From Thermoanaerobaculia bacterium (GTDB taxonomy: Bacteria; Acidobacteriota; Thermoanaerobaculia; UBA5066), in the NCBI GenBank assembly GCA_963816185.1, contig CAWFJJ010000029.1, positions 256,001-320,000 on the forward strand: a stretch of DNA of 64,000 bases, in the 5' to 3' direction. Both the position numbers and the translations under genes were made by a program. Positions 23,879 through 62,031 of the stretch are shown here, in pieces. Numbering within the stretch: the first letter of the stretch is position 1; each line of letters begins with the position of its first letter. A model generated the notes under the pieces. The model was given only the letters and a program-made list of their open reading frames with translations. It searched no databases and was not told where the DNA came from.

Positions 23879-26771
23879 ATGAAGAACGTTCTCGCCAGCC
23901 TCGTCCTGATCGCGTCCGCGTCGCTCGCACCCGTCGCGTCCGCGGCGGACATGCTCGTGACGCCCGAATGGCTCGCCGATCACCGAGGCGAACAGAATCT
24001 CGTCCTCCTGCACGTCGGCCCGCCGGCCGACTTCGAGAAAGAGCACATCCCCGGCGCGATCCTCGTGAGTCCGCAGGACCTCTCCATCCCGCGGACCGAG
24101 AGCGCGCTCATCCTCCAGCTCCTCCCGCCCGCCCAGCTCCGCGCGAAGCTCGAGAGCCTCGGCATCGGCGACGACTCGCGCGTCGTCGTGTACTTCGGCA
24201 AGGACTGGGTCTCGCCCACGACGCGCGTCTACTTCAGCCTCGACGCCGCGGGCCTCGGCGACCACACGTCCATCCTCGACGGCGGCATGCCGGCGTGGAA
24301 GGACGCGGGCGGAACGGTCGTTTCGTCGGCGAACGATCCCGCGTCGGCCGTCCAGAGGAAGCCGGCAAAGATCACGGCCCGGGCGCACCCCGAGCTCGTG
24401 GCCGACCTCGACTTCGTCAAGGCCAACCTCGAGACGCCCGGGGTCGCGCTCGTCGACGCGCGCCACAAGAAGTATTTCGACGGCGCCGACGCGGGCGCGA
24501 TGCCCCGCGCCGGCCACATCCCCGGGGCGCACAACCTGCCGTTCGATACGCTCCTCGACGACGACGACACGATGAAGAGCCCCGCCGAGACGGCGAGGCT
24601 CCTCGAGGCAGCCGGCGTCAAGCCCGGCGACACCGTCGTGAGCTATTGCCACATCGGCCAGCAGGCCACCGTCGTGTACTTCGCGGCGAAGCGCCTCGGC
24701 TACAAGGCGCGCCTCTACGACGGCTCGTGGGACGAGTGGAGCCGCAGGAGCGACCTCCCGATCGAGAAGAACGGGGCGAAGGCAGCCGCGCCCGGGGCAC
24801 CGGCCGCGCCTGCCGTGCCGGCCGCCCCGCCGCCCCCTGCCGCTCCCGAGCTCGTCGCCGCCGACACGCCGAAGACGACGCCCGGCGGCACGAACTTCAA
24901 GGCGCCCGCCGGGTGGACGATTACGACGAAAGGCTCGATGGTCATCCTCGCGCCTCCGGAAACGGACGCGCGGCTCGCGATCGTGGACGTCGAGGCGAAG
25001 GACGCCGACGCCGCGGTCGCCGCGGGCTGGTCCGCCTTCGAACCGGGCTTCAAGCGGCCCCTGAAGATCGCGCAGCTCGGGACGGCGCGCGACGGCTGGG
25101 ACGAGCGGCACTCCTACGTCTACGAGACGTCGCCGAACGAGAAGCTGACGGTCTTCGCGCTGGCCTGGCGCGCCGGCAAGGTCTGGACCGTGACGCTCGT
25201 CGACGCCGCCGATGCGACGATGGAGAAGCGCGGCGGCCCGTTCTCACTCGTCATGAGCAGCCTGCGCCCGAAGGGCTATGCCCGCGAGACGTTCGCGGGA
25301 AAGAAGGCGCACCCGATCGACGCGAAGATGATCGCGACCCTGAAGGACTTCCTCGCCTCGGGGATGAAGCTGTTCGACGTCCCCGGCGTCGCCTTCAGCC
25401 TCCTCGACGGCGGGAAGGTCGTCTACGAAGGCGGGCTCGGCGTCAAGGAGCTGGGCAAGCCGGACCCGGTGGACGCGAACACGCTCTTCGCGATCGCATC
25501 GAACACGAAGGCCTTGACGACGCTCCTCCTCGCCGAGCTCGTGGACGAGAAGAAGCTGCGCTGGGACGAGCCCGTCACCGAAGCCTACCCGGCGTTCAGG
25601 CTCGGCGACGCCGCGACCACGAAGCAGGTCCTCGTCAAGCACCTCATCTGCGCCTGCACGGGCATGCCGCGGCAGGACTACGAATGGATCTTCGAGTACG
25701 CGAAGGCGACGCCGGCTTCGGCGCTCGGGATGCTCGGCACCATGCAGCCGACGAGCAAGTTCGGCGAGGTCTTCCAGTACAGCAACCTCATGGCCGCGGC
25801 GGCCGGGTTCATCGGCGGCTCGATCGCGTACCCCGGCAAGGAGCTCGGCGCCGCCTACGACAAGGCCATGCAGAAGAAGGTCTTCGGCCCGCTCGGGATG
25901 AAGCACACGACGTTCGACTTCGCCAAGGCGCTGAAGGGCGACGTCGCGCAGCCGCACGGCGACGACGTGGACGGCAGGCCGGCCCGCGCGCGCATGGACC
26001 CGAACAAGTCGCTCGTGCCGGTGCGCCCCGCGGGCGGCGCCTTCACGAGCGCGCACGACCTCTCGAAGTACGTGGCGATGGAGCTCGCGAAGGGCCTGCT
26101 CCCGAACGGCAAGCGGCTCGTCTCCGAGGAGAACCTCCTCGCGCGCCGCGCGCCGCAGGTCCTCGTCGCCGAGGACGTCACGTACGGCATGGGCCTCATC
26201 GTCGACCGCAAGTGGGGAATCCCGATCGTCCAGCACGGCGGCTCTCTCTTCGGCTACAAGAGCGACATGATGTGGCTCCCCGATTACGGAGTCGGAGCCG
26301 TCATCCTCACGAACTCGGATTCCGGTGCGGCCCTCGAGGGACCGTTCCAGCGCCGGCTCCTCGAGCTGCTCTTCGACGGCAAGCCCGAAGCCGAGGACCA
26401 GCTCCGCGTCGTCGCCGCGCAGAGAAAGGCCGCCATCGCGAAGGAGCGCGAGCGCCTCGTCGTCCCGGCCGACGCCGCCGAGGCCGCGAAGCTCGCGCCG
26501 CGCTACGTCAACGCGGCGCTCGGCGAGCTGACCGTGAAGAAGCAGCCCGGCGGCAGCGTCGTCTTCGACGTCGGGGAGTGGTACAGCAGCGTGGCCTCGC
26601 GCAAGAACGACGACGGGACGATCTCCTTCATCACGATCGACCCGGCGGTCGCCGGCTTCGAGTTCGTCGTCGCCGACGGGGACGGCAAACGCGCGCTTCG
26701 TAATCCGTGACGCACAGCACGAATATGTCTTTATGGAGGACACAGGTCCCAATTCGACGCCCGTGAGGTGA
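23879..26771 (+). CDS. exported tandem-rhodanese sulfurtransferase fused to a beta-lactamase-family serine hydrolase; terminal frameshift near 26697
   Basis: HIPGA x2, YCHIGQQA, YDGSWDEW; SNTK (SxxK), YSN, HGG; track stop at 26710, but the shifted frame continues VIRDAQHEYVF to TGA at 26771. Confidence 0.85.
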
Positions 26772-28822: not shown

Positions 28823-29113
28823 GTCGCCTGCTTGCGCGGCCCGTTTCGCCTTTGGGGTGCGCGTCGCGGAAGCGCAGCTTGAGCCAGAGCCCAGCGAAAC
28901 CCAGACCGTGGTGGTCGTCCACGAACGTCCAAAGACGAGGCGGGTAGGGGCGACGAGCCGCTGCGGCAATGGAGTTTGGTCGAAAAGCCATGTTGGTGCA
29001 CGACGACGACGGAAGCGCGGCATCCGGGCTCGACCGCGCGTTGCGAGAAACAGAGACCTCGAAGAGGGTCCGGCGGAAGGGCAGGGAAAGGTAGGGAAGC
29101 CCGAGAGACGGCT

Positions 29114-29425
29114 TTATCTGGCCACGGCCCGGGCGATTTCCTTCGGTCTCTTTCCGGTGGCTAGCAGGGAACGAACGATGAGGTCGAGGCTGACCTGCGC
29201 GTCGGCGCTCTCCATCTTCGCGACTCGGGACTGGCTCGAGCCCAGCTTCGAAGCGAGCGCCGTCTGGGACAGCCCTTTCTTCAAACGAGCCTTCTTGAGC
29301 TCGCGTGCGAGGCTGAGCTTGATCTCGATGTAGGCCGATTCTTCAGGGGTCAAGCCGAGAAGGCTTTCGGCTGATCCGAATGTCCAGCCCTTCCTCATGA
29401 GTCGCGCCTTCTTCGTCTTGTGCAT
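29114..29425 (-). CDS. XRE-family HTH antitoxin-like regulator
   Basis: MHKTKKARLMRKGW...LSQTALASKLGSSQSRVAKME...SLDLIVRSLL. Confidence 0.85.
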   Translation of the reverse strand: MHKTKKARLMRKGWTFGSAESLLGLTPEESAYIEIKLSLARELKKARLKKGLSQTALASKLGSSQSRVAKMESADAQVSLDLIVRSLLATGKRPKEIARAVAR

Positions 29426-29497
29426 TTGATTACTCCGAAAACGGCGGAAACGGATTCCGCCATATAGCCACGCGAGAGGCTCTTCGGGAACCTTCAT
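29426..29497 (-). pseudogene. 5' remnant of a RelE/Gp49-like toxin gene
   Basis: MKVPEEPLAWLYGGIR, then with a 1-nt shift PPFS; resembles the KPLVWLHGEIKTPPFS N-terminus of toxins that pair with this antitoxin type. Confidence 0.55.
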
Positions 29498-29509
29498 TCG
29501 TCCGGAAGG

Positions 29510-29548
29510 AAGATAAGGTCGTTTGAGTGGCTATGTCAAGTCTGACAT
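29510..29548 (-). promoter_or_regulatory. sigma70-like promoter with palindromic operator for the decayed TA locus
   Basis: Minus strand TTGACA-18 nt-TATCTT; inverted repeat ATGTCA-AGTC-TGACAT (29533-29548) overlaps the -35. Confidence 0.6.
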
Positions 29549-29713
29549 GACGGTCAGGGACCTGCGAACGTGGCCCCAAAGGGTAACGCCTCTCATTTGC
29601 AGCCCGCCGCCGGACGACCTAGATTGCACGGCGTATACCGGTCCGGAAGCGTTGAGCCGCGACTGACCAGACCGAGGCGAGAGGCGGTCCTGACGCCTGT
29701 TTGGAGGCACCCG

Positions 29714-32230
29714 ATGAATCCGTGTGAACGTCATGGGACCCGGCACGCAGCCCCGGCACCGACTCCGCATCGCATTCGGACGGCATCACGCCTGCGCGTT
29801 CCGCTGAGCGCCGTCCTGCTCCTTCTCTTCCGTGGCGCCGGCATGGTCGACACCGCGCTCGCTCAACCGGTACCTCCTCAGCCAACACCGTTCTCCTACT
29901 ACAAGCTGAAGGAAGTAAACCTGCCTCCGGAAAAGCGTCCTCCGGTGAAGTACACGCGTGAGCAGCTCCAGCTCAAGAACGTGGGGGGCGATCTGCCGAC
30001 CTACGACGGCGAGCAGTTTCAGCTGAACCTGATGGGGACGACCGTCGAATCGGCCGAGAGCGCGAAGCGCTTCACTGCCCAGTTCCTGCAGTCCTTGAAG
30101 AGTCCGTTGAAACTGGACGACCAGATCCGGCTCAACATCACCAAGACGACCGGAAAGCCGGATCAGCAGTTCATCGACCAGCAGGCCCGGGCCGGTCACG
30201 ACGCCACGACGAAGAAGCTGACCGGCAAGTACAAGAGCGTCGGCAAAGGCTCGACCGGGATGCTCAACGAGCTGGACGCCGATTTGAAGAAGCAGGCACA
30301 AGGCACGATCACCGTCTATCGATTCGACGAGTACTTCAACGGCGTCCTGATCGACAACACGGCGATCACCGTCAGCAACCGGGACGGAGGGAACCTCGCC
30401 GCCGTCCGAGGCCGCTTCTTCGACGTCGTCAAGCCCACGAACAGCAAGAAACTTTCTCCCGGGGAGGCCGTGCGGCGCGCCGTCGCCGAGATCAAGGCGG
30501 CCAACAAATACGACAAGGTGACCGGCGACCCGGCGAAAGCGACCGTCGTGCTCGTTCCGTACGAGGACGGGTTCAAGTACGCCTGGAGGACGATGGTCAC
30601 GGCGGACGGTCCCTACGAGGTCTGGATCGACGCGGAAACCGGTTCGGTACTTCAGCTCCTGGCGCGCTTCTACTTCTCCGACAACGCGAAGGGGCTCGCG
30701 TTCTCGCCCGATCCGAATGCGGGCACCCAGGAAATGTCGTTCGAGGTCGATGCGGCGAGCGGCGGGAAGTACACGTTGCAGAAGACCGGAGTCGTCGTGA
30801 TGAGCAATGACGGCGGGGACGGAACGACCGGCATCGTCCAGATCAAAGACGACGGATCCGGCACGGCCAATTTCAACCAGGCGCCGATCAACGGAACCAC
30901 GGTCGAGCATACGAACCAGGCCGGGTACAACGGCCAGTTCCAGCAGGTGAACGTCTTCGCCCACCTCTTCAACGAGCGGCGGTACTACATGCTGCTCGGG
31001 AGCCAGGCCTTCGCCCAGATGAACGTCACGTTCAACACTCCCGGGGGCAATTCCTTCTGCTGCCCGCCCCACTACTTCACCGGCGACGCGACGACGGGCC
31101 CGGGGGCGACGACGTGCACCGGCGCCTGCAACTGGGACCTCAAGTTCTACAACGCGGGGATCGACGCGACCGTCATCGCCCACGAGTTCGGGCACCAGCT
31201 GAACGGCAACCAGTACGCGGTGGGCGGGGGGACGGATCCCTCGAACGTAAACGAGGGGATGGCGGACTTCTGGGCGTTGACGACGTTCAACACGGACACG
31301 TTCGCGAAATGGTGGGCGCACGACTGCGCGTCGCCCACGCAGTCCGGGATGGCGCCGCGGCAGGCGGAGGCGACGGACGTCTTCGGCCACAGGAATTCGC
31401 AGCCGTGCGCCTCGGACGAGGGTCATTCCGCGGGGCAGATCATCGCCTGGGCGAACTGGAGCGCGCGGAAGGGGATGAACGATCTGACCGGCTGGGGCAC
31501 GTTGAACATCAATATGGCGCTGATCAAGGCGATGACGACGGCGGGGGTCGGGCTCGCGAACATCGGGACCGACAAGGGGGTTCACGACTCGTACCTGGAC
31601 CTGCTGAAGCAGGCCGCGCCGCAGTTCAGCGGGTCCCGCCTGATCCACAAGCTGCTCGCGGGCTACGCGAGGGCGGGGATCTTCCTCGCTCCCAAGGACG
31701 CCGTCCTCGACATCTCGGACAACTATCTGGACCGGAACGCGGCGTCCGGGCCGACCTTCACGGTGTGGACCGGCCGGGACTACACGTTCAGCGGTACGAG
31801 CGTGGACACGACGTCCCCGCCGTTCAACACGCAGTTCATGATCGAAGTGGCGAACAACGAGGCCTTCACGACGAACCCCGTGAGCAGCGGGTGGCTCGGA
31901 GGCGTGACGGCCGGAGACGGCGGAACGGCGACGTGGGCGCTGCCGGCGGCCTCCTGGAACGCGCTGAAGGCGGGAAACGATCTGTACTATCGCCTGACGA
32001 CCAAGGACGGTTCCGGCGGCAACGTCCGGCAGTCCTGGAATCCCGGCAACGGGTTCCTGGCCGGTGTTCCGGTCGGACGGGCGGCCATCAACGGCACGGG
32101 CACCCAGGACTGCTCGTGCTCGGCGTCGGCGGCTCCGGTGAAGTCGGCGATGGCGCTGGTGCCCATGCTGCCGGTCGGTCTGCTGTGGATCTACAGGCGG
32201 AGGCGCCGCGCCGCGGGCGAGCGAGGGTGA
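29714..32230 (+). CDS. secreted M4/M36-like zinc metallopeptidase with propeptide and Cys-containing C-terminal sorting tail
   Basis: GGAGG RBS at 29703, signal peptide, PepSY-like IDAETG, HEFGH...NEGMADF...EGH, tail DCSCSASAAPVKSAMALVPMLPVGLLWIYRRRRR. Confidence 0.85.
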   Translation: MNPCERHGTRHAAPAPTPHRIRTASRLRVPLSAVLLLLFRGAGMVDTALAQPVPPQPTPFSYYKLKEVNLPPEKRPPVKYTREQLQLKNVGGDLPTYDGEQFQLNLMGTTVESAESAKRFTAQFLQSLKSPLKLDDQIRLNITKTTGKPDQQFIDQQARAGHDATTKKLTGKYKSVGKGSTGMLNELDADLKKQAQGTITVYRFDEYFNGVLIDNTAITVSNRDGGNLAAVRGRFFDVVKPTNSKKLSPGEAVRRAVAEIKAANKYDKVTGDPAKATVVLVPYEDGFKYAWRTMVTADGPYEVWIDAETGSVLQLLARFYFSDNAKGLAFSPDPNAGTQEMSFEVDAASGGKYTLQKTGVVVMSNDGGDGTTGIVQIKDDGSGTANFNQAPINGTTVEHTNQAGYNGQFQQVNVFAHLFNERRYYMLLGSQAFAQMNVTFNTPGGNSFCCPPHYFTGDATTGPGATTCTGACNWDLKFYNAGIDATVIAHEFGHQLNGNQYAVGGGTDPSNVNEGMADFWALTTFNTDTFAKWWAHDCASPTQSGMAPRQAEATDVFGHRNSQPCASDEGHSAGQIIAWANWSARKGMNDLTGWGTLNINMALIKAMTTAGVGLANIGTDKGVHDSYLDLLKQAAPQFSGSRLIHKLLAGYARAGIFLAPKDAVLDISDNYLDRNAASGPTFTVWTGRDYTFSGTSVDTTSPPFNTQFMIEVANNEAFTTNPVSSGWLGGVTAGDGGTATWALPAASWNALKAGNDLYYRLTTKDGSGGNVRQSWNPGNGFLAGVPVGRAAINGTGTQDCSCSASAAPVKSAMALVPMLPVGLLWIYRRRRRAAGERG

Positions 32231-32239
32231 GAATGCCTC

Positions 32240-33118
32240 GTGCGACCGCGGTTAATCGAGGTTCTGAACCGCCACTTCCACGGTGAGGTGTTCCAGTTCC
32301 TCGTTCCCGATCCCGCCGTGGTGTACGCCGTCATGCTGGGATTGGGGATCTGGCTCTTCGTCAGACGCTGCGAGCGCAGCGGCTTGTCGTGGGAGCACGC
32401 AACCGGCGTGGCGCTCTGGGCCTCTCTGGCCGCCGTCCTAGGCGCGCGATTGTTCTATCTGATCCAGCATCTGGGGCATACGGTTTCTCATCCTTCGATC
32501 CTTCTCGAGATCAACGGCGCGACCGTGTCCTTCGGGGTCTATGTCGGCGGCGTCCTGGGTGCGCTGCTCTACTCCCGCGTGAAGCATTTCGCGCCCCTTC
32601 CGTACCTCGACGCATTTGCCTCCGTCCTCGGCATCGGACCTTTGATCGGCCGCTGCGCGTGTTTCCTCAACGGCGACGACTACGGGAAGGTGTCGAGTGT
32701 CCCCTGGGCCGTGCGGTTTCCTCACGGCAGCTATCCTTTTCTCGATCACGTTCGGCGAGGGTGGATCAGTCCCATGGAAGACCTGTCCCTGCCGGTTCAT
32801 CCGGTGCAGCTCTACCTGTCGCTCAAAGGGCTCGTCCTGCTCGTCGTCTTCTCGGTGCTCTGGAGAAAGAGATACTTCAAGCCAGGCGTCGTGTTCCTGC
32901 TGTTCTGGATCTGCTATTCGTCCGCCCGCTTCGGTCTGGAGTTCTTCAGAGGTGACGAGGACCGCGGATGGATTGGCGGGTGGTCGACCGGTCAGGTCTT
33001 CTCGGTGCTGATCGCGGCCGTGGCTCTCGCCGGGATCGTCGTGTGTTTCCGAGGGAGGATCAGGGCGGAAGGAGTTCCGGGGAAAGCAGAAGGGGTGATG
33101 CCGCTCACGCTCGAGTGA
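32240..33118 (+). CDS. divergent prolipoprotein diacylglyceryl transferase (Lgt) paralog
   Basis: LGARLFY, IGRCACFLNGDDYG, PWAVRFP, HPVQLY, YSSARFGLEFFRGD, STGQ; ~7 TM. Confidence 0.85.
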   Translation: MRPRLIEVLNRHFHGEVFQFLVPDPAVVYAVMLGLGIWLFVRRCERSGLSWEHATGVALWASLAAVLGARLFYLIQHLGHTVSHPSILLEINGATVSFGVYVGGVLGALLYSRVKHFAPLPYLDAFASVLGIGPLIGRCACFLNGDDYGKVSSVPWAVRFPHGSYPFLDHVRRGWISPMEDLSLPVHPVQLYLSLKGLVLLVVFSVLWRKRYFKPGVVFLLFWICYSSARFGLEFFRGDEDRGWIGGWSTGQVFSVLIAAVALAGIVVCFRGRIRAEGVPGKAEGVMPLTLE

Positions 33119-33208
33119 GCTGACCGCACTTTCCCGGGAATGAACTCGTCGCCGCCTGGGGGAATATTCGGCGGAAGCCTTCGGTCTCCTAGTCTAGGAG
33201 CCTCTCCA

Positions 33209-35569
33209 ATGCGCAATGCCTGTGTGCGAGTCGGGATCCTCGTCGGAATCGCCGTAGCGTCCGCCGCGCTTCTCGGCGCGAGGCCGGCTCGTCGATCGCT
33301 TCTCGCGGTGGCGATTCCGAACCCGATCCTATTCGTCACGCAGGTGCCCGTGCCGGGCGACTTCACGACCGTCGCGTCGGTGTTCGGGAACGCGACGGGC
33401 GGCGTCGCGGCCGCGCCGCGCGGCGGCGATCTCTGGATCCAGTATCCGGACGGGACGCGCAAGAACCTGACGCAGGTCGCGGGATTCGGGCAGACGGGCT
33501 CGCAGGGCGGCGGCGGCATCGCGGTGCGCGAGCCCTCGGTCCACTGGAGCGGGACGAAGGCCGTCTTCTCGATGGTGATCGGCGCGCCGACCGCGCAGTT
33601 CGTGCAGGGAACCTGGTTCTGGCAGCTCTACGAGGTGACGGGCCTGGGCGAGGCCGACACGCCCGTCATTACGAAGGTCCCGAACCAGCCGGCCGGCTTC
33701 GACAACGTCGCGCCCGTCTACGGCACGGACGAGCGGATCCTCTTTGCGTCGGACCGGCCGCGGAACGGCGCCGCGCATCTCTACCCGCAGCTCGACGAGT
33801 ACGAGGAAGCTCCGACGGTGACGGGTCTCTGGAGCCTGAACCCTTCGACGGGCGACCTCACGATGCTGAACCACTCGCCGAGCGGCCTCTTCTCGCCGAC
33901 GATCGACTCCTTCGGGCGGCTCGTCTTCACGCGCTGGGATCACCTCCAGCGCGACCAGCAGGCCGACGGGGACGGCCCGGCCGGCCCGTTCGACCAGGCG
34001 AATCCGTACGGCACGTTCAACTTCGCCGACGAGTCGGCCGGGGCCGCGCGCCTGGCGACGCGGGCCGAGGTCTATCCCGAGCCGCGCGGCGAGAGGACGG
34101 ACCTTCTCGCCGGGACGAATCTCGTGGGGCACTCGCTGAACCACTTCTTCCCCTGGCAGATCCGCGAGAACGGGACCGAGGAAGAGACCCTGAACCACAT
34201 CGGGCGGCACGAGCTGCACGACTTCTTCAGCCGCGTCTTCGACGACGACGCGAACATCGTGGACTTCACGGCGGCGACGTCGGGCCGCGTCAACCCGAAT
34301 CCCATCCGGAACTTCCTCCAGATCAAGGAGGACCCCGCGACCCCCGGCCGCTTCTTCGGGATCGACGCGCCGGAGTTCCAGACGCACGCGGGCGGGCAGA
34401 TCGTGCGGATGGACCTCCCGCTCGGCGCGCACCCGGACCAGATCCAGGTCGTTTACGTGACGAACCGCGCGACGGCGAATCCACGGCTCGATACCGACCC
34501 GGTGCCGCCGGGACATTCGGGCTTCTATCGGAACCCGCTGCCGCTCTCGGACGGCACGCTCCTGACCGTCCACACGAGCGAGACGCGCGCCGACGCGAAC
34601 GAGGGCACGGCCGCATCGCCGGTCTCGCGCTATTCGTTCCGGATCCAGTCGCTCGCGCCGGCAGGCGACGGCACCCTCGTCGCGGACCAGATGCTCACGA
34701 CGGGGATCGTGAAGAGCGTCGCGTACTGGGATCCGGACACCCGGGTGACGTACACGGACGTGACGCTCTGGGAGCTCGACCCGGTCGAGGTGAAGCCGCG
34801 TGCGAAGCCCGTGGCGCCCGCGTCGCCGCTCCCGGCGCTGGAGGCCTCGATCTTCTCGCAGGAGGGTGTGGATCCCGCGGCGTTCGAGGCCTGGCTCGCG
34901 CAGAAGAATCTCGCGGTGATCGTGAGCCGCGACGTGACGACGCGCGACGCCCTCGACCAGCAGCAGCCGTTCAACCTCCGGATCGCGGGAACGGCGCACC
35001 AGACCGCACCCACCGGCGGCAAGCTCTACGACGTGGCGCACCTTCAGCTCTTTCAGGCCGACCAAATCCGCGGCGTCGGAGGCACGACGAGCCCGAGGTC
35101 CGGGCGCCGCGTTCTCGCGCAGGTGATGCACGAGCCCATGGTGATCGCCACGAACCTCCCGAACCCGGGCGGGCCGCCCGGAAGCGTCCGCCTCGGGAAC
35201 GACGGCTCCATGGCGGCGTTCGTGCCCGCGCACCGAGCCGTCACGTGGCAGATGACCGATCCGGCGGGGACGCCCGTCGTCAGAGAGCGCTACTGGCTGA
35301 CGTTCCAGCCGGGCGAGGTCCGCGTCTGCACGTCGTGTCACGGCCTCTCGAGTCACGACCAGTTGGGCAATCCCGAGTCATTGAACGCCCCGGAGGCGCT
35401 GCGCCAGATCGTCCGTTACTACCGCGACGTCCTCAACCCGGCCTCGAGCCACCGTCACGTCGAGCTTCTTCACCCTGACGGCGTGCCGCGCTCCTCGATA
35501 CGCGTGGCGCGGTAGGCCCGCTCGGCGCCGTCCCATGTGATCCTCGACGTCTTCGGCTACTACCGCTGA
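33209..35569 (+). CDS. secreted HzsA-related (TolB-like propeller plus CxxCH) protein; 3' end frameshifted
   Basis: Signal peptide, REPSVHWSGTKAVFSM, RILFASDR, FTRWDH, QPGEVRVCTSCHG; track stop 35515, indel-corrected end at TGA 35569. Confidence 0.7.
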
Positions 35570-35576
35570 GGGAGCG

Positions 35577-35966
35577 CTACCGAGGCAGCTGCTCCAACCG
35601 GATGCCCTTGCCCGCCTGAAGCGCCTTCCGAGCTGCAGCTACGCGCTTGAGGAAGCGCGGGCTCGAAGTCGAGGCACGCTTCCGGGGGCCGGACATGGGC
35701 CGACGCGCGAGTCTCGCCTTGTTGAGCTCGTAGTCGGCTTCGAGCCGGATCCAGAGCTCCGCGCTCGTCCCGAGGGCGTCCGCCAGCTCGAGAGCGGTGC
35801 CCCCGGTGATCCTCTTCCGGCCCCGGACAATCTCGTTGATGGCTTGAAGCGGTCGATGCATGAGGCGCGCAAGGCGAGACTGGGTGAGGCCTCTCGCCTC
35901 CAGTTCCTCGGCGAGAACGTCTCCCGGCGGGATCGCGACGTCAGGCCACGCACGTTCAGTCGCCAT
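35577..35966 (-). CDS. higA: HigA-family antitoxin with extra C-terminal segment
   Basis: IPPGDVLAEEL...INEIVRGRKRIT...LADALGTSAELWIRL. Confidence 0.88.
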   Translation of the reverse strand: MATERAWPDVAIPPGDVLAEELEARGLTQSRLARLMHRPLQAINEIVRGRKRITGGTALELADALGTSAELWIRLEADYELNKARLARRPMSGPRKRASTSSPRFLKRVAAARKALQAGKGIRLEQLPR

Positions 35967-36258
35967 AGTGCTTGCTCACTTCCTCGACGCGTACGATCGT
36001 CCACGCGTCGTCCTCGAAAGCCACGATGAGCCGCTCCCGGTCGCCGAGACGGATCGCGTACTGGCCCCGGCGCTCGCCCTTGAGGGGGTGAATGTCCAGA
36101 GCCTTCAAAGCGAAAAGATCCCGGCCATCCCTCGCGGCCCACAACGTGTTGATGCGCTGGATGTACGTACGCCCCACCTTCTGGCCCCATTCGCGTTGCG
36201 CGAGCCGGATCTCGCGGTAACAGCGCTCGAGCCGGCTGGTGGCGAAACGGACGACCAC
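35956..36258 (-). CDS. higB: HigB-family mRNA interferase toxin
   Basis: HPLKGERRGQYAIRLGDRERLI...EEVSKHY; toxin-first order, overlapping higA. Confidence 0.88.
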   Translation of the reverse strand: MVVRFATSRLERCYREIRLAQREWGQKVGRTYIQRINTLWAARDGRDLFALKALDIHPLKGERRGQYAIRLGDRERLIVAFEDDAWTIVRVEEVSKHYGD

Positions 36259-37574: not shown

Positions 37575-39122
37575 TCATCTCCTCATGGGTTTCCGGATTC
37601 CCGGTGAAAGCATCATGGTGAACGGCAGGAACACGACGAAGGCGAACATCAGCATCCAGAAGACGTCCACGTATGCCTTCGCGGCAGCCTGCCGCGAAAG
37701 GCTCCCTTCGATGAGTCCCAGCGACAGGGAGCGGACGGTTTCGGGATCGAGGCCCGAAACGACAGAGAGCCCGTGCGCCGTCGCGGAGAGGCGCTGCTGG
37801 ACGATGGAGCTGTAGGCCGAGATGTGCTCGACGAGGCGCGCATGGTGGGTCTGCGAGTGCCGGGCGAGGACGGTGGCGGACAGGGCGATGCCGATCGAGC
37901 CGCCTTCGTTCCGAAGGAGGTTGAAGAGGCCCGTGGCCTGACCCATCTTCTGGGGTGAGAGGTGCGAGAAGGCCGCCGTGCTGATCGGGACGAAGAGGAA
38001 CCCGAGGCCGAACCCCTGCACGAGACGCGAGAACATGACGTACTTGAAGTCGACGTTCAGGTCGACGCCGCGGAGGAGCCAGAGGGCGTAGAGGTTCAGG
38101 AGCGCCCCCACGAGGACGAGGAGCCGCGTGTCGACCTTGCCGATCAGGTTCGCCACGATGACCATCGCGAGGAGCGAGGCGATCCCCCCCGGCGACAGGA
38201 CGAGCCCCGCCCACGTCGCCGTGTAGCCGAGCATCGTCTGGGCGAAGAGCGGGAGCATCGTGAACGCGCCGAAGAGCCCGAAGCCGAGGAGGAACATCAG
38301 GATCGTCCCCGAGGCGAAGGCCCGGTCGTTGAAGACGCGGAGGTCCACGAGCGGCCGTTCGGCCGTGAAGGAGCGCCAAATGAAGAGGGCGATCCCGGTC
38401 AGCGAAGCGAGGGCGAAGAGGCTGATGAAACGGCTCTCGAACCAGTCGTAGCGCTGGCCCCGGTTCAGGACCACCTCGAGGCTCCCGAGGCCGATGCAGA
38501 TGAAGGCGAAGCTCATGAAGTCCACCCGCCCCTCAGGGCGCTTCAGGTGCGACGGCTCGGTGATGTGCATCAGGCCGAGGACGATCCCGAGGATGCCGAC
38601 CGGGATGTTGATGTAGAAGACCCAGGGCCAGCCCCAGTTGTCCGTGATCCAGCCCCCCAGCGTCGGGCCGATGATCGGGCCGAAGACGACGCCCACCCCG
38701 AACATCGCCATCGCCTTGCCGCGCTCCTCCGGAGGGAAGGCTTCGAGGAGGATCGCCTGCGACATCGGTACCATCGCCCCGCCGGCGAACCCCTGGACGA
38801 CCCGCATGACGACGAGGAAGGGGAGCGACGGAGCGGCTCCGGAGCCGAGCGACGCGAGCGTGAAAATGCCGAGGCACCAGAGGTAGAAGCGCCTCCGGCC
38901 GAAGTAGTTCGCGAGCCAGCCCGTGATCGGCAGGATGACGGCGTTGGCCACGAGGTACGAGGTGATGACCCAGGTGATCTCGTCCACGCTGGCCGAGAAG
39001 GTCCCCTGCATGTGCGGGAGCGACACGTTGGCGACGGAGGTGTCCACGACCTCCATCAGCGTGCCGAGCATGGAGGTGAAGGCGATGAGGTACCGGCTCG
39101 TCGTCTTCGCGTTTTCGGCCAT
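37575..39122 (-). CDS. DHA2/EmrB-type MFS efflux permease
   Basis: DTSVANVSLP, WVITSYL, GPIIGPTLGG, FYINIPVG. Confidence 0.92.
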   Translation of the reverse strand: MAENAKTTSRYLIAFTSMLGTLMEVVDTSVANVSLPHMQGTFSASVDEITWVITSYLVANAVILPITGWLANYFGRRRFYLWCLGIFTLASLGSGAAPSLPFLVVMRVVQGFAGGAMVPMSQAILLEAFPPEERGKAMAMFGVGVVFGPIIGPTLGGWITDNWGWPWVFYINIPVGILGIVLGLMHITEPSHLKRPEGRVDFMSFAFICIGLGSLEVVLNRGQRYDWFESRFISLFALASLTGIALFIWRSFTAERPLVDLRVFNDRAFASGTILMFLLGFGLFGAFTMLPLFAQTMLGYTATWAGLVLSPGGIASLLAMVIVANLIGKVDTRLLVLVGALLNLYALWLLRGVDLNVDFKYVMFSRLVQGFGLGFLFVPISTAAFSHLSPQKMGQATGLFNLLRNEGGSIGIALSATVLARHSQTHHARLVEHISAYSSIVQQRLSATAHGLSVVSGLDPETVRSLSLGLIEGSLSRQAAAKAYVDVFWMLMFAFVVFLPFTMMLSPGIRKPMRR

Positions 39123-39139
39123 CGCGTCGTGCCGCGCTC

Positions 39140-40183
39140 TCAGCCCGGGACGGGAGTCGCCCGGACGGGCGCGGACGCCGGCATCTCCGCCGGCCTTGCC
39201 AGGGTGTCGACCTCGACGTGGACGGAGAGACCGAGCCGGAGCGATCCGTCCCCGTTGCTCGCGGGATCGATGGCGATCCGGACGGGGAGGCGCTGAACGA
39301 TCTTGACCCAGTTCCCGGTCGCGTTCTCCGCCGGCAACAGCGCGAATGCCGCGCCCGTTCCCGCGCTGATGCTGTCGACCCGGCCGCTGTACGTGCGGTC
39401 CGGATTTACGTCGGTCCGGAAAGTGGCGGGCTGGCCGACCCGGATGTGCTTCAGCTCGGTCTCCTTGAAGTTCGCCTCCACCCAGATGTGGTCGCCCGTC
39501 AGCGGGACGATGGCGCAGAGGGGCTGTCCCGGCGCGACGACCTGGCCCGCCGTCGCGGACAGCTTGCTGATGACCCCGTCCACGATCGTCGTGATCGTGC
39601 AGTAGGAACGGTTCAGCTGGGCGTTCCTCAGGCGCGACTCCTGGACCCGGACCTTTTGGTCCGCCACGCCGAGGTCGGCCTCCTTGGCCGCCAGCGCCTT
39701 CCGTGCAGCGTCCAGATCGGCGGCGGCGACCGACTCGGCGGCCACGGCGTCGTCGAACCGGGCCCTCGGAATCGAGTTCTTCCGGTTCAGCTCCGAGTAG
39801 CGGGCGAGGTTCGTCCGGGCCAGCTCGAGGCGACTCGCGTCCGCGGCGGATTTCGCGCGCTTCTCCTCGATCTCGGCCCGGCGGGTGGCGAGGGTCGCGC
39901 GCGCCTCGCCGAGAGCCGTCTCGACCTGCTCCACCTGCGCGTCGGCGTCGCGCGGGTCGAGCGTGGCGAGGATCTGCCCCTGCCGGACCTCCTGGTTCTC
40001 GACCACGTCAATCGTCAGCAGGGTTCCCGGAACGCGGGAGGAGACGGCGTAGACGTCGCCGCTGACGTAGGCGTCCTCGGTATTCGGGTGGACCTGCGAG
40101 TGCTTCCACCTCCGCCAGCCGGCCACGGCGATGGCGAGAACGACGGCGAGGATGACGGCGAGGCTGATCCACTTCCGGGCCAT
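39140..40183 (-). CDS. EmrA/HlyD membrane fusion protein
   Basis: TEDAYV, ANFKET, ENATGNWVKIVQRLPVRI. Confidence 0.92.
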   Translation of the reverse strand: MARKWISLAVILAVVLAIAVAGWRRWKHSQVHPNTEDAYVSGDVYAVSSRVPGTLLTIDVVENQEVRQGQILATLDPRDADAQVEQVETALGEARATLATRRAEIEEKRAKSAADASRLELARTNLARYSELNRKNSIPRARFDDAVAAESVAAADLDAARKALAAKEADLGVADQKVRVQESRLRNAQLNRSYCTITTIVDGVISKLSATAGQVVAPGQPLCAIVPLTGDHIWVEANFKETELKHIRVGQPATFRTDVNPDRTYSGRVDSISAGTGAAFALLPAENATGNWVKIVQRLPVRIAIDPASNGDGSLRLGLSVHVEVDTLARPAEMPASAPVRATPVPG

Positions 40184-40184
40184 G

Positions 40185-41525
40185 TCAGCGCTCCTCTTCG
40201 GCCGGGGCGGCGCCGGCGAAGACGGTGGGAAGGTCGAGGCCCGCGGCCGCGGCGAGGAGGCCCTCCTTCAGGTACGCGGTGTAGTGCTGGTTCACGAGGG
40301 AGAAGCGGCTCTCCGCGAGGACCGACTCGGCGTCGAGGACGTCGATCGTCCGGGCGAGGCCGGCCTTGTACTGGTCCTCTTCGATCCGGAGGTTCTCCTC
40401 GGCGGCTTCCACGTTCTTCCGGGCCGTCTCGGCTTCGTGGAGCGCCTGCGTGAAGTCGCGCCAGGCCTCGTCCACGCCGATGTCGAGGGACCGTGCCAGA
40501 TCCCCGATCTCGCTCTGGGTCTTCCGGGCTGCGATCTCCGCCTGCCGCACCGCGGCCTTCCGGGACCCGTTCTCCCACACCTGCCAGGAGACGCCCACGA
40601 AGAAGATGTTCGTGTTGGGATAGGCGAGAAATTCGTTCTCCTGGTAGGTGTGCGAGAACTGGGCGAAGAGGCTCGGCCAGCTCTCGCCCTTCCGTGCGGC
40701 CGCGGTCCTCTGGTCCACCCCGAGGCTCGCCCGAAGCGACTCGAGCCGGGGATTTCCGGAAGAGGCGCGCCGCTTCAGCCCGTCCAGATCGTCCGGAAGC
40801 GGAGGGGGAGACGACAGGGCTCCGGGGAGAGTGAGCGTCTCGTCCGGGGAGCGGCCCATCAGGCGGCGGAGGGTTTGCGTCGCCACGGCGATCCCGTTAC
40901 CGATCTGCCCGATCTGGTCCTTCACGACGCGAAGTCGAACTTCCGTGCCGAGGAGGTCATTGCGGGCGACGATCCCTTGATCATAAAGGTCGCGAGCGAT
41001 GCGCAGGTGCTCCTCGAGGCTCGAGATCCGCTGGTCCACGACCCGCCGCTGCGCCTTTAGGACGAGCACCTTCAAGTACGTCCCGAGACCTTCGAGCTGC
41101 GCCGTCTGTACGTCCGCCTTTCCCTTCAGCGAGGTCGCGGCCTCGGAGCCGCGGGAGATCTCGAGCGCGGCCGACCGGCGCCCTCCGTCCCAGAGCACCT
41201 CGGTCAGGTCGGCCTCGGCCGTGAAGAAATTCTTCTGAGTCGTCGGCACTTCGAGCGTTCCGAAGATCGCGACGACCTCGCGATCCCGGGCCTGCCAGTT
41301 TCCCGCGACGGAGAGAGAGGGCCAGTAGGCCGCCTTCGCCCGCGTCGTCCCTTCCTGCGCGGCGCCGAGATCGAGCCGGGCAGCCACCGACGCCTGCGAC
41401 TGTGCCGCGACGGCCCGCAGCGCGTCGGAGAGAGTGAGCGCCGAAGGGGAGGCCGGAGGCGGCTCGTCGGCCAGAACGCTTCCGAAACACAGCGCCAGGA
41501 TGAGAGAACCAAGCAATCTGTTCAT
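40185..41525 (-). CDS. TolC-family outer membrane efflux protein
   Basis: Signal peptide, helical TolC repeats, YKAGLARTIDVLDAE. Confidence 0.88.
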   Translation of the reverse strand: MNRLLGSLILALCFGSVLADEPPPASPSALTLSDALRAVAAQSQASVAARLDLGAAQEGTTRAKAAYWPSLSVAGNWQARDREVVAIFGTLEVPTTQKNFFTAEADLTEVLWDGGRRSAALEISRGSEAATSLKGKADVQTAQLEGLGTYLKVLVLKAQRRVVDQRISSLEEHLRIARDLYDQGIVARNDLLGTEVRLRVVKDQIGQIGNGIAVATQTLRRLMGRSPDETLTLPGALSSPPPLPDDLDGLKRRASSGNPRLESLRASLGVDQRTAAARKGESWPSLFAQFSHTYQENEFLAYPNTNIFFVGVSWQVWENGSRKAAVRQAEIAARKTQSEIGDLARSLDIGVDEAWRDFTQALHEAETARKNVEAAEENLRIEEDQYKAGLARTIDVLDAESVLAESRFSLVNQHYTAYLKEGLLAAAAGLDLPTVFAGAAPAEEER

Positions 41526-61855: not shown

Positions 61856-61932
61856 GGTGGGAGTAGCTCAGTCGGTAGAGCGTCGGATTGTGGTTCCGAA
61901 TGTCGCGGGTTCGACCCCCGTCTTCCACCCCA
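61856..61932 (+). tRNA. tRNA-His (GTG)
   Basis: G-1, acceptor stem GTGGGAG/CTTCCAC, anticodon stem-loop TCGGA-TTGTGGT-TCCGA, TTCGA T-loop, C discriminator, encoded CCA; extended -10 TGcTATCCT upstream. Confidence 0.95.
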
Positions 61933-61954
61933 GCCATCTTTTTCGAATCCTCGC

Positions 61955-62031
61955 GCGCCCGTAGCTCAGCTGGATAGAGCGTCAGACTCCGGATCTGAAG
62001 GCCTCCGGTTCGAATCCGGACGGGCGCACCA
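61955..62031 (+). tRNA. tRNA-Arg (CCG)
   Basis: GCGCCCG/CGGGCGC acceptor stem, TCAGA-CTCCGGA-TCTGA anticodon arm, GGTTCGAATCC, encoded CCA. Confidence 0.95.

Follow-up and report, generated by a model that had tools for sequence, protein, structure and literature searches.

The locus described here raises the question of why a secreted metallopeptidase, with cysteines near its C-terminus and no lipobox at its N-terminus, should be followed directly by a gene of the Lgt family. Probably the two genes constitute a mobile cassette in which an Lgt paralog, dedicated to the upstream product, attaches lipid to the cysteine of its tail. Their recurrent pairing across many bacterial phyla may be a lead to the missing enzyme for anchoring proteins by a lipid at their C-terminal end. 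The window, meaning the whole stretch of 64,000 nucleotides that was analysed, contains the following features in and around the first of the two genes:

29714..32230 (+), cargo peptidase gene, 838 aa from the ATG at 29714; gluzincin-type, secreted, with a C-terminal Cys-type sorting tail
29714..29863 (+), N-terminal signal region, aa 1-50, ending ...TALA ahead of Q51; signal peptidase I type, without lipobox
31181..31255 (+), zinc site, HEFGH (aa 490-494) plus Glu514 in NEGMAD; invariant columns
32081..32227 (+), sorting tail, aa 790-838: signature AAINGTGTQDCSCSASA, spacer, helix and Arg run; TIGR03901 match
32111..32119 (+), Cys800-Ser-Cys802 (TGC TCG TGC), proposed lipid acceptor site
32147..32194 (+), hydrophobic helix AMALVPMLPVGLLWIY, aa 812-827, from sequence and tail scan
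32195..32209 (+), RRRRR, aa 828-832, predicted cytoplasmic basic cluster
32231..32239 (+), intergenic gap of nine bases, from the peptidase stop to the Lgt-like GTG at 32240

The peptidase reading frame is open from a GTG at 29570 (29570/29714..32230, +), and its TGA stop ends at 32230. There are 105 homologues, and across 93 sequences H490, E491, H494, E514 and D518 are invariant, in a zinc-site spacing that we take to be thermolysin-like; the thermolysin model NF047971 matches weakly across the HExxH region (24.1 bits), and PepSY scores 22.9 bits, under its cut-off of 24. The N-terminus reads MNPCERHG...RVPLSAVLLLLFRGAGMVDTALA and then QP, the signal peptide probably being cut before Q51, which is near-invariant in the family. 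The first-pass annotation had reported that this signal lacks a lipobox, and the pattern [LVI][ASTVI][GAS]C is indeed absent from the peptidase N-terminus, with lipobox-like matches in the first 45 aa of 5/93 family members.

The C-terminus (...GTGTQDCSCSASAAPVKSAMALVPMLPVGLLWIYRRRRRAAGERG) has the layout originally read from it, in which DCSCS, with TGC codons at 32111-32113 and 32117-32119, precedes a spacer, a hydrophobic helix and RRRRR. N793 and G796 are invariant in the 93 homologues, in at least 90% of which C800 and C802 are kept; within a 61-sequence subset C800 is invariant. The motif IN.xG..C.C is present in 83/93. Such a Cys is uncommon by chance, being present in just 14 of 76 background tails with a TM helix and basic end. 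A point against its lipidation is that, where a lipobox Cys directly adjoins the hydrophobic stretch, the tail Cys lies 2-10 residues ahead of it. Two known tail types had been suggested for comparison. The first held, as aa 800-832 of 838 score 22.9 bits on NCBIfam TIGR03901 (MYXO-CTERM), whose cut-off is 20, and the second did not, JDVT-CTERM finding no match by NCBIfam on the scanned tails of the window and other loci. Like the targets of the myxosortase MrtX in Myxococcota, the window tail is tripartite, has an invariant Cys and passes TIGR03901. However, its family signature is AIN-x-G...C-x-C, not the 'generic GCGC motif' given in passages of PMC11980579, and at E <= 0.01 the MYXO-CTERM model matches just 7/61 peptidase-family tails.

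The second gene, co-oriented and nine nucleotides past the stop as first described, comprises:

32240..33118 (+), Lgt-family paralog, 292 aa, GTG start; proposed tail-Cys lipid transferase
32648..32686 (+), Lgt signature motif GRCACFLNGDDYG, aa 137-149, corresponding to E. coli G142-G154
32927..32950 (+), RFGLEFFR, aa 230-237, corresponding to the E. coli R239, E243, R246 network

Its product is a Pfam family member (PF01790, 145.2 bits) that matches E. coli Lgt (PDB 5azb) in sequence at E 1.4e-15, and its AlphaFold model (pLDDT 88.6) has 5azb as sole PDB match at E <= 0.001, with TM 0.68/0.70; the predicted fold is that of Lgt. Nonetheless, it falls under the equivalog cut-offs of TIGR00544 (100.6 bits, against 118.9) and NF000778, both of which are passed by the Clostridium estertheticum protein L036. 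No terminator-like site was found between the two genes, which are therefore likely to form an operon.

The same arrangement recurs far from the window. Firstly, in two Bacteroidota loci of 42% GC (L001 and L002) the peptidase is 55-57% and the Lgt-like protein 57% identical to those of the 68% GC window, and these two are the only genes in common, kept in co-oriented adjacency with a gap of about 10 nt. Secondly, 27 further pairs lie on apparently shared contigs (of 103 peptidase homologues and 120 listed Lgt-like matches), sharing being judged from exactly equal recorded contig sizes, where chance would give about 0.5 such matches; four of the contigs measure less than 4.5 kb. Thirdly, across 29 cassettes the pairwise identities of both proteins correlate (r = 0.89; Mantel, 0/999 permutations as high), demonstrating that peptidase and Lgt-like protein co-diverge. 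The distribution is sporadic and crosses phyla, among the relatives listed extending to Bacteroidota, Calditrichota, Eiseniibacteriota, Acidobacteriota, Gemmatimonadota and Hydrogenedentota. Horizontal movement of the cassette between phyla seems likely, in line with the initial suggestion that enzyme and substrate travel together.

A survey of 81 Lgt-family loci, namely the window and the best 80 of 570 relatives, selected by pattern, extends the association beyond this peptidase. Under a strict rule (a Cys no further than 22 aa ahead of a hydrophobic stretch that is uncharged and 13-26 aa long, then at least two R/K, and the protein end at most 14 aa further on), 12 of the 81 have a qualifying co-oriented ORF abutting the Lgt start (the window, L001-L004, L013, L019, L025, L028, L037, L040 and L068), against a background of 25/3285 ORFs of at least 100 aa. 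In a 145-row tree all 12, together with L005, fall in one clade (SH-aLRT 99), and the other 68 outside it. Hence an upstream Cys-tail gene accompanies 12/13 clade members and 0/68 others by the strict rule, or 12/13 and 4/68 by a laxer one (Fisher p = 3e-10), within this same sample of the window and the best 80 of 570; both an Lgt phylogeny and a test for neighbour enrichment had been proposed as checks in the first-pass annotation. A more careful 82-row tree recovers a 10-row clade (bootstrap 96, SH-aLRT 83) of which 9 are tail-linked, and monophyly of the 13 is not rejected by an AU test (p = 0.43). The exception, L005 from Gemmatimonadota, is a clade member without a tail neighbour, near whose Lgt-like gene lies an ORF that, by motif, resembles lspA.

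These results bear on whether the paralog is simply the genome's sole housekeeping lgt, adjacent to the peptidase by coincidence. The 64-kb window does hold a single PF01790-type ORF, a search for a second having found none, yet we regard this explanation as very improbable. The adjacency persists between genomes of 68% and 42% GC, and the equivalog cut-offs that the window protein misses are passed by the C. estertheticum one. Moreover, the window gene belongs to a clade separate from the phylum-congruent Lgt groups, with a mix of phyla incongruent with organismal phylogeny, and the same phyla also hold phylum-congruent Lgts, Acidobacteriaceae being present in both groups. Among the 120 best relatives, clusters are small (1-41 member sequences) and 0/13 named matches are isolate-named, ten being MAGs and three having a protein name only.

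The proteins encoded beside the tail-linked Lgt-like genes belong to seven families, BLASTP-unrelated outside the tail, and one of them contains the choice-of-anchor X domain NF041940. This diversity weighs against the idea that the paralog is an extra ordinary Lgt for N-terminal lipobox proteins, which happens to hitch-hike on the same mobile island as the peptidase; we judge this improbable. Extra copies certainly exist: two lgt genes occur in about 1,300 of 12,956 genomes, and copies on plasmids travel with genes for lipoproteins (PMC13251419), while passages of PMC4941574 describe two functional copies in S. coelicolor. Such second Lgt-family genes (S. coelicolor Lgt1/Lgt2, M. smegmatis MSMEG_5408, the B. 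cereus group plasmid lgt) in some cases carry N146C or travel with substrates, and the passages available from these two papers describe them as enzymes for the N-terminal lipobox whose activity is redundant or weak, with no link in that text to C-terminal sorting tails or CPBP proteases. The composition of the locus also fits this idea, since G+C falls to 0.60-0.65 over about 29100-33300 (flanks about 0.69), and the lower GC3 already noticed for the Lgt-like gene (0.78) is evident beside the peptidase (0.87), the next gene (0.90) and the upstream genes (0.88-0.95). Additionally, the L025/L028 cargo has an N-terminal lipobox besides the tail. However, a lipobox is rare in the peptidase family and missing from its window member, none is seen by eye in the cargo of L004, L019, L037 and L040, and the Cys tail is all that the seven families have in common. 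Nor would hitch-hiking explain fusions of the paralog to a myxosortase-type domain.

These fusions are found in four natural proteins (P0256, P0373, P0374 and P0375; 67-75% identical, on four contigs), each joining a clade Lgt-like domain to a PF02517 domain. The best NCBIfam matches of the latter are myxosortase models: Mrt_core NF040914, with its cut-off at 100 bits, gives 107.7, 97.7, 96.4 and 80.5, and MrtP 99.5-132.6 bits on the fused CPBP domains. The partnership between paralog and tail that the first-pass annotation had proposed is supported by clade, neighbours and cargo diversity, and also by fusions to the myxosortase-family CPBP that it had not foreseen.

The residues of the paralog bear on what it may do to the tail. 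In E. coli numbering it retains R143, N149, G150, G154, H196, Y235, R239, E243 and R246 (the role of R239, E243 and R246 being described in passages of PMC4728403), and R138, C141, G145 and G149 of its own signature motif are conserved. Alignment to 5azb agrees with the first report of kept Lgt motifs, NGD for NGE and a missing His: position 146 has C instead of N and position 151 D instead of E, the H103 position has no His (VSFGV), and the Y26 region is not alignable. Natural Lgts include H103 to Y/W/F, N146 to C and E151 to C/D (PMC13251419), and N146C occurs in 80/80 fetched loci (the best 80 of 570 relatives); two of the residues first reported as 'odd' thus belong to natural variation already described and are no hallmark of the paralog. 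Instead, the columns distinguishing the clade (D147, G174, S183, L184) are in the head domain, while D129, R143, G150, G154, Y235, R239, E243 and R246 are common to the clade and other Lgts.

The Lgt-like protein might alternatively be the true partner of the tail without transferring diacylglyceryl to its Cys, whether by using another lipid or head group, by modifying the second Cys or another residue, or by presenting the tail as a non-catalytic receptor or holdase. We consider this unlikely, though with appreciable weight. The association shows just that both proteins work together, and the paralog is missing Y26 and H103, 'absolutely required' in E. coli Lgt according to PMC13251419, which also raises different acyl substrates or mechanisms in divergent Lgt subgroups; furthermore, CPBP proteins can serve lipoprotein acylation, as PMC7387801 reports for LnsB. 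Nevertheless, D129, R143, G154, Y235, R239, E243 and R246 are kept clade-wide, disfavouring a pure receptor, which would not need a conserved donor-site and catalytic network, and the fused CPBP domains best fit myxosortase models.

Under the preferred reading, that of diacylglyceryl transfer to the tail Cys, the metallopeptidase would be exported via its ordinary signal peptide and first held in the inner membrane by the C-terminal helix. The positive-inside rule, applied to the observed sequence layout, would place the Arg run in the cytoplasm and the conserved AIN-x-G...C-x-C at the periplasmic face. The neighbouring paralog, by alignment and modelled fold, retains phosphatidylglycerol-binding and catalytic residues of Lgt, and differs where protein-substrate specificity is reportedly set, at arm-2/H103 and the head domain; passages of PMC4728403 propose HGGL as the acceptor-peptide site of Lgt. 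It would recognise the tail and put a diacylglyceryl group on a tail cysteine, in an acceptor topology inverted relative to Lgt, because the neighbour's Cys precedes a C-terminal helix. A CPBP/myxosortase-type intramembrane protease encoded elsewhere may then remove the helix, leaving a protease lipid-anchored at its C-terminal end. This cutting step is suggested by the fusions and by the published MYXO-CTERM model, in which passages of PMC11980579 place Cys lipidation before CPBP cleavage and surface export. The window was originally said to lack a sortase-like protease, and neither a custom HMM across its 64 kb nor NCBIfam on 38 of its proteins found a CPBP/myxosortase-type candidate. Nor was a CPBP-like ORF, or myxosortase, found within about 10 kb of any of 80 loci (best of 570), so helix removal is unaccounted for wherever the cassette was seen.

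This scheme shares logic with known systems, while differing in its parts. Passages of PMC11980579 assign lipidation of the MYXO-CTERM Cys, as a prediction, to an 'Lgt-like acyl-transferase', which in their words 'remains unidentified'. Comparative genomics there found no cognate acyl-transferase, and the authors favour housekeeping Lgt over a paralog; both points count against the present reading. The MYXO-CTERM system of Myxococcota has dozens of clients, whereas each Lgt-like cassette has one cargo and also occurs in Bacteroidota and other phyla. JDVT-CTERM/MrtJ (Haft; passages of PMC11980579 and of a preprint) is likewise a sporadic pairing of one sorting enzyme with one Cys-tail target, but there the adjacent enzyme is a CPBP protease, and here an Lgt-family transferase. 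CAAX processing, by a prenyltransferase and then Rce1, similarly lipidates a C-terminal Cys before a CPBP-family protease cuts distal to it (passages of the same preprint and of PMC11980579). The proposed pathway would instead act at the periplasmic face, with phosphatidylglycerol rather than prenyl diphosphate as donor and a transferase of an unrelated family, and would remove a long TM-helix tail, not AAX.

The pair had also been placed beside a decayed toxin-antitoxin locus, of which the antitoxin half stands:

29114-29497 (-), Xre/HipB-type HTH antitoxin-like gene, from profile matches

No toxin was matched by Pfam, at up to E <= 1, in six flanking ORFs. Separately, an intact-looking HigA and RelE/YoeB-like pair lies at 35577-36258 (-).

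The two genes considered here are co-oriented and lie close together.

29570/29714-32230, plus strand: peptidase gene, 838 aa counted from the ATG at 29714
32240-33118, plus strand: Lgt-like gene, 292 aa, 9 nt downstream of the peptidase gene

The first-pass annotation had described a Cys-tailed peptidase beside an Lgt paralog, an observation confirmed by the ORFs, the Cys codons, a sorting-signal model matching the tail and a PF01790 match of the second protein. Its interpretation, that the paralog lipidates the tail, finds support within the reach of comparative genomics, through the neighbours of related genes, the diversity of the proteins these encode, the conservation of the pair as a cassette, and a set of fusion proteins. 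We consider that the Lgt-like protein and the Cys tail are very probably functional partners, and that the sequence comparisons make it somewhat probable that the former puts diacylglycerol on the tail Cys.

The peptidase begins with an ordinary signal peptide, comprising a hydrophobic core (VPLSAVLLLLF) followed by TALA before QP, and has no lipobox there, just as had been claimed. Its zinc site, HEFGH...NEGMAD, contains the HExxH and downstream Glu ligand that are the criterion for thermolysin-like (M4) gluzincins, with H490, E491, H494, E514 and D518 invariant across 93 homologues. A Pfam scan found no M4 domain, and matches to the NCBIfam thermolysin model NF047971 (24.1 bits; cut-off 1350) and to Pfam's PepSY (22.9 bits; cut-off 24) were weak. 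Neither sequence nor profile searches found a solved PDB relative; the lone match, to ribosome-recycling factor at 22 bits, was taken as spurious. Hence, with invariant zinc residues, a weak M4 match and no solved relative, the protein is classified from its sequence as a gluzincin-type metallopeptidase, not as a proven M4 member.

The last 49 residues of the peptidase read AAINGTGTQDCSCSASAAPVKS, AMALVPMLPVGLLWIY, RRRRR, AAGERG. The Cys codons are at 32111 and 32117, where they had been annotated, and the tail has the tripartite layout of MYXO-CTERM signals, with a Cys signature, a TM helix and an Arg-rich end. When the MYXO-CTERM HMM was run on the tail, as had been proposed, residues 800-832 scored above the cut-off (NCBIfam TIGR03901, 22.9 bits against 20), although just 7/61 members of the peptidase family reach this model at E <= 0.01. 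The family signature, IN-x-[STAG]-G, 2-5 residues, then C-x-C, is present in 83 of the 93 homologues; N793 and G796 are invariant throughout the 93, while C800 is kept in at least 90% of them and is invariant in a 61-sequence subset. Among 105 peptidase homologues, the tail was found in 76 by the tail rule and in 97 by eye, and the eight lacking it comprised three that look truncated, four with another C-terminal domain and one that stops at the motif. Some homologues are named 'MYXO-CTERM domain-containing protein' at source, including one from a Bacteroidota MAG. Under a strict rule, requiring a Cys at most 22 aa before an uncharged hydrophobic stretch of 13-26 aa, then at least two R/K with the protein ending within 14 aa, the 64-kb window contains one such tail. 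Its high G+C and the MYXO-CTERM match do no more than hint at Myxococcota as the source.

The second protein belongs to the Lgt family, matching Pfam PF01790 at 145.2 bits (threshold 24.9; aa 27-267) and the sequence of E. coli Lgt (5azb) at E 1.4e-15. Its AlphaFold model (40 relatives in the alignment; pLDDT 88.6, pTM 0.85) had 5azb as its sole Foldseek match at E <= 0.001 (E 2e-9; TM 0.68/0.70), and the protein is accordingly predicted to have the seven-TM body and periplasmic head fold of the E. coli enzyme. It nevertheless scores below the housekeeping equivalogs, with 100.6 against 118.9 bits for TIGR00544 and 116.1 against 334 for NF000778, as do five relatives from its own branch of the family (L001, L004, L019, L028 and L040), whereas a control (L036) passes both. 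In the ESM Atlas, its homologue P0044 matched only generic LGT clusters.

The first line of support comes from gene neighbours. A protein search retrieved 447 Lgt-like relatives, and the best 120 of these fall into small sequence clusters. Among these 120, the closest are 73-87% identical to the window protein, MAGs labelled Bacteroidota, Bacteroidia and Odoribacter appear at 55-64%, and an Ignavibacteria MAG at 48%; ten of the 13 named matches are labelled MAG, three bear a protein name and none is named for an isolate. A scan of species genomes yielded 600 pattern matches, of which 570 were confirmed as relatives, and the best 80 provided the loci denoted by L-numbers, a sample biased by the search pattern. 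The Lgt ORF was placed in each locus by HMM, and the co-oriented ORF ending beside it was tested for a Cys/hydrophobic/basic end. Such tail-bearing neighbours occurred in 12 loci (the window, L001, L002, L003, which is cut by a contig end, L004, L013, L019, L025, L028, L037, L040 and L068), against a background of 25 such tails among 3285 ORFs that are 100 aa or longer.

These loci are concentrated in one part of the Lgt tree. A careful 82-row phylogeny, rooted on E. coli Lgt, recovered a 10-row clade (bootstrap 96, SH-aLRT 83) with a tail neighbour in 9/10, which L025 and L028 join at 77/88. Adding 63 proteins gave a 76-row clade (SH-aLRT 99, quick search) containing all 12 tail-linked loci and L005, with the other 68 loci lying outside in largely phylum-congruent groups, such as 17 Clostridia and 22 Acidobacteriota. 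The phylogeny and the neighbour enrichment proposed as checks in the first-pass annotation thus both came out as predicted: under the strict rule, tail neighbours accompany 12/13 clade loci and 0/68 others. With a laxer rule the contrast is 12/13 against 4/68 (Fisher p = 3e-10), the four outsiders being two ORFs that by motif we presume to be lspA, one 70-aa ORF and one polytopic membrane protein. An AU test did not reject a single clade of 13 (p = 0.43), a group named after the tree had been seen. Acidobacteriaceae fall both inside (L013, L068) and outside (L055) the clade; this argues, on the sampled sequences, for the clade members being paralogs, judged at the family level. The window contains a single PF01790-type ORF, with no second in its 64 kb. 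L005, the clade member lacking a tail-bearing neighbour, counts against the tail-lipidation reading, and some clade members may have ordinary roles. ORFs with an FN[VI]AD motif, which we take to be lspA, lie directly upstream of lgt at L027:9319-9942 and L029:2734-3279, and another that we likewise presume to be lspA (L005:12681-13184) is 1.8 kb downstream of the Lgt-like gene. Plasmid carriage was also considered, and a tblastn search of 72,556 plasmids matched just four records, each from Sinorhizobium at 31% identity and one of them annotated lgt.

The residues conserved in the clade are consistent with a lipid transferase that has changed its substrate. The window protein keeps E. coli D129, G142, R143, N149, G150, G154, H196, Y235, R239, E243 and R246. 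Mao et al. assign donor binding and catalysis to R143 and the R239/E243/R246 network, and in the same account propose the arm-2 HGGL motif as part of the acceptor-peptide site (PMC4728403). E. coli R143, R239, E243, R246, Y235, G154 and D129 correspond to R138, R230, E234, R237, Y226, G149 and D124 here, all but Y226 being invariant in the 40-sequence alignment. When the 76-row clade was compared with 69 other Lgts, the residues common to at least 90% of both sets were the donor-site and catalytic ones, including all seven of these positions, Y226 among them, while four columns set the clade apart (D147, G174, S183 and L184), every one of them in the head domain. Hence the comparison fits 'same donor chemistry, different acceptor'.

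The individual oddities that had been annotated are less informative. The NGD in place of NGE (E151 to Asp in E. coli numbering) and the missing SFHGG His are both present, with F98-G99 aligned to H103; the N-terminus around Y26 is unalignable, and N146 is Cys. H103 and Y26 are both reported as required in E. coli Lgt, and their absence here counts against the tail-lipidation reading; the natural variants described in the same source include H103 to Y/W/F, N146 to C and E151 to C/D (PMC13251419), meaning that neither annotated change is diagnostic. N146C was rejected as a mark of the paralog, being both a known variant and present in 80/80 fetched loci, a count partly biased by the search pattern CFLNG[DC]D[YF]; loss of H103 is a similarly weak mark, with other Lgts in the set having Tyr there.

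Secondly, the proteins encoded upstream of clade members, here termed cargo, are diverse. By BLASTP, the 12 cargo proteins form seven unrelated sets with only the C-terminal Cys tail in common.

Cargo sets encoded upstream of the tail-linked Lgt-like genes
Set 1: peptidase; window, L001, L002, L003; 50-57% identity
Set 2: L013/L068
Set 3: L025/L028
Sets 4-7, singletons: L004; L019; L037; L040

Just 14/76 other ORFs with a helix-plus-basic end have a Cys at the equivalent place, and its occurrence in all seven independent cargo families is therefore unlikely by chance, as judged from these sequences. The L019 cargo has a choice-of-anchor X domain (NF041940, 35.5 bits). That of L004 (L004:9740-9991, plus strand, beside the Lgt-like gene at L004:10001-10888) has a GGAGG preceding its ATG at 9740, and is probably just 83 aa as read from the sequence, with a signal peptide and a Ser-rich linker preceding CC, a helix and RRR; it would be a convenient natural test substrate. 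Outside the window's own tail, no cargo tail matched an NCBIfam CTERM model at E <= 0.01. The set 3 cargo proteins (L025:2586-3779 and L028:8637-9953) combine an N-terminal lipobox (LLIGC and LAVGC) with the C-terminal Cys tail, and also carry Cys-rich DDGSxDSC repeats; their lipoboxes count against the tail-lipidation reading. The Lgt-like genes of these two loci group with Sorangium paralogs, and that of L028 has a convergent thyX gene. In an Acidobacteriota/Gemmatimonadota subclade, the cargo and Lgt-like pair sits within a larger conserved block (L013:55-7447, L068:5438-15051 and L037:256-6901), with an uncharacterised 665-870-aa protein and an AAA ATPase downstream, and in L013 and L068 two uncharacterised proteins upstream.

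Thirdly, the peptidase and Lgt-like genes are conserved together across phyla. Close relatives of the cassette were found in Bacteroidota MAGs, and the pair are the sole genes that the window has in common with L001/L002 of Bacteroidota (42% GC), in which the intergenic gap is 15 nt rather than 9 nt, bearing out the earlier suggestion that substrate and enzyme travel together. In metagenomic data, co-location was inferred from equal contig sizes: 27 of the 103 peptidase homologues with a recorded contig size are on a contig of exactly the size of that carrying one of the 120 listed Lgt-like matches, against about 0.5 expected by chance, and four of the 27 contigs are shorter than 4.5 kb. Across 29 cassettes, the pairwise identities of the two proteins correlate (r = 0.89; Mantel, 0/999 permutations as high), validating the contig pairing.

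Fourthly, some clade members are fused to an intramembrane protease of the CPBP (PF02517/Rce1-like) family. When 1.84 billion representatives were searched with a profile, 26,734 matched at E <= 1e-3, of which 1,652 reached E <= 1e-30. The top 150 matches included P0256, a 484-aa protein with an Lgt-like region (aa 1-275) followed by an Rce1-like PF02517 domain, and a second search added P0373, P0374 and P0375; the fusions share 67-75% identity, and the four contigs that encode them differ in source. The Lgt halves of all four fall inside the 76-row clade, grouped with the window's subclade (SH-aLRT 87), and the Lgt half keeps R..CF..GCDFG and R...E..R, while the CPBP half keeps EEIFFRG, FAGAH and HWLAN. 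The CPBP halves best match the NCBIfam models of myxosortases, the family members that process MYXO-CTERM tails, scoring 99.5-132.6 bits against MrtP (cut-off 250; core only) and 107.7, 97.7, 96.4 and 80.5 bits against Mrt_core (cut-off 100; one passes). As the clade is thereby joined to the family that processes Cys-type tails, these predicted fusions are the strongest single argument for placing the Lgt-like clade and CPBP proteases in one common pathway. A custom HMM built from five sequences detected no CPBP-like ORF in the 80 loci or in the window, in agreement with the annotation that the window has no protease for the tail, and in cassette genomes the tail helix may stay uncut; this absence counts against the proposed pathway. 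Other long Lgt-like proteins were also seen: P0305, P0315, P0335 and P0360 (467-890 aa) carry about 190-470 aa of additional sequence, P0315 being N-terminally extended as well, and one of them matches the outer-membrane beta-barrel domain PF13505; the Sorangium proteins P0391-P0398 are clade members of 478-623 aa.

These data bear on a gap in the published model of MYXO-CTERM sorting. In the scheme proposed by the defining papers, the invariant Cys is lipidated, and cleavage by a CPBP protease and surface export follow; both state the transferase to be unknown, and both favour the essential housekeeping Lgt, as MrtX processed the tail of TraA in E. coli (PMC11980579; preprint 10.1101/2023.06.07.544157). 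Their candidate is therefore the housekeeping enzyme, whereas ours is a dedicated Lgt-family paralog, although the processing of TraA in E. coli means that not every Cys tail needs such a paralog. Around 1,300 of 12,956 genomes are reported to have two lgt copies (PMC13251419), and extra copies are treated, in the passages discussing them, as redundant or weak lipobox enzymes (PMC13251419; PMC4941574). A full-text literature search found no Lgt paralog linked to C-terminal tails or fused to a CPBP domain; hence, while the enzyme family and type of sorting signal are already known, their pairing and topology are not described in the papers searched.

The broadest proposal is that the clade constitutes a transferase for Cys-type C-terminal sorting signals, acting with myxosortase-family CPBP proteases in a horizontally spread 'reverse lipoprotein' pathway across at least seven phyla, which we hold about equally likely to be right or wrong. 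In this scheme, the lipid would first be placed on the Cys ahead of the C-terminal helix, the helix would then be cut off by the myxosortase-family protease, and the system would spread horizontally in the form of single-cargo cassettes or of two-enzyme fusions. If true, Lgt chemistry would reach beyond N-terminal lipoboxes to C-terminal anchors, part of the roughly 1,300 two-lgt genomes would be explained, and a tool for the C-terminal lipid anchoring of proteins would become available. There would also be a sequence signature for annotating such paralogs, currently named 'prolipoprotein diacylglyceryl transferase', and their tail proteins, currently 'hypothetical protein', 'Zn-dependent metalloprotease' or 'MYXO-CTERM domain-containing protein'. 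An essential housekeeping Lgt is hard to test genetically as the transferase; as a candidate, the paralog is dedicated and non-essential, with one defined substrate in the adjacent gene. The pair is of high interest because a minimal system of two genes, transferable to a laboratory host, allows the stated transferase question to be tested.

Within the window, the pair has the following neighbours.

29114-29497, minus strand: orphan HTH gene of Xre/HipB type, N-terminally extended by 55 aa
33140-35515, plus strand: 791-aa exported protein, starting 21 nt after the Lgt-like gene

The Lgt-like gene has a GC3 of 0.78, compared with 0.87-0.95 in its neighbours, upholding the annotated difference in bias, and G+C dips over approximately 29100-33300; hence the pair looks, by composition, foreign to its surroundings. 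No convincing direct repeats flank the island borders, and the only tRNAs of the window are at 61857-62031. No terminator-like site separates the peptidase and Lgt-like genes, and such sites are no commoner than in shuffled sequence; one promoter-like site was found, on the minus strand at 29539-29510, by the HTH gene. This gene is the antitoxin-type component of what had been annotated as a decayed toxin-antitoxin locus, but a toxin partner is missing from that claim, with no Pfam match at E <= 1 in six flanking ORFs. The 791-aa protein was rejected as a third member of the cassette: its sole match is to the hydrazine synthase alpha middle domain (PF18582, 36.4 bits), its GC3 of 0.90 is host-like, it is not conserved in related loci, and nothing beyond the pair is common to the window and L001-L005.

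Further along the window, a gene for a HigA-family antitoxin (TIGR02607, 62.8 bits) and a 100-aa ORF that weakly matches YoeB/RelE overlap each other (35577-36258, minus strand), and these probably form an intact toxin-antitoxin pair, as judged from the matches. A 943-aa secreted protein with two rhodanese domains and a beta-lactamase/transpeptidase-fold domain is encoded at 23879-26710 on the plus strand, and a tripartite efflux operon, comprising an EmrB-like DHA2 MFS pump, an EmrA-like adaptor and a TolC-family outer-membrane protein, occupies 37575-41525 on the minus strand.
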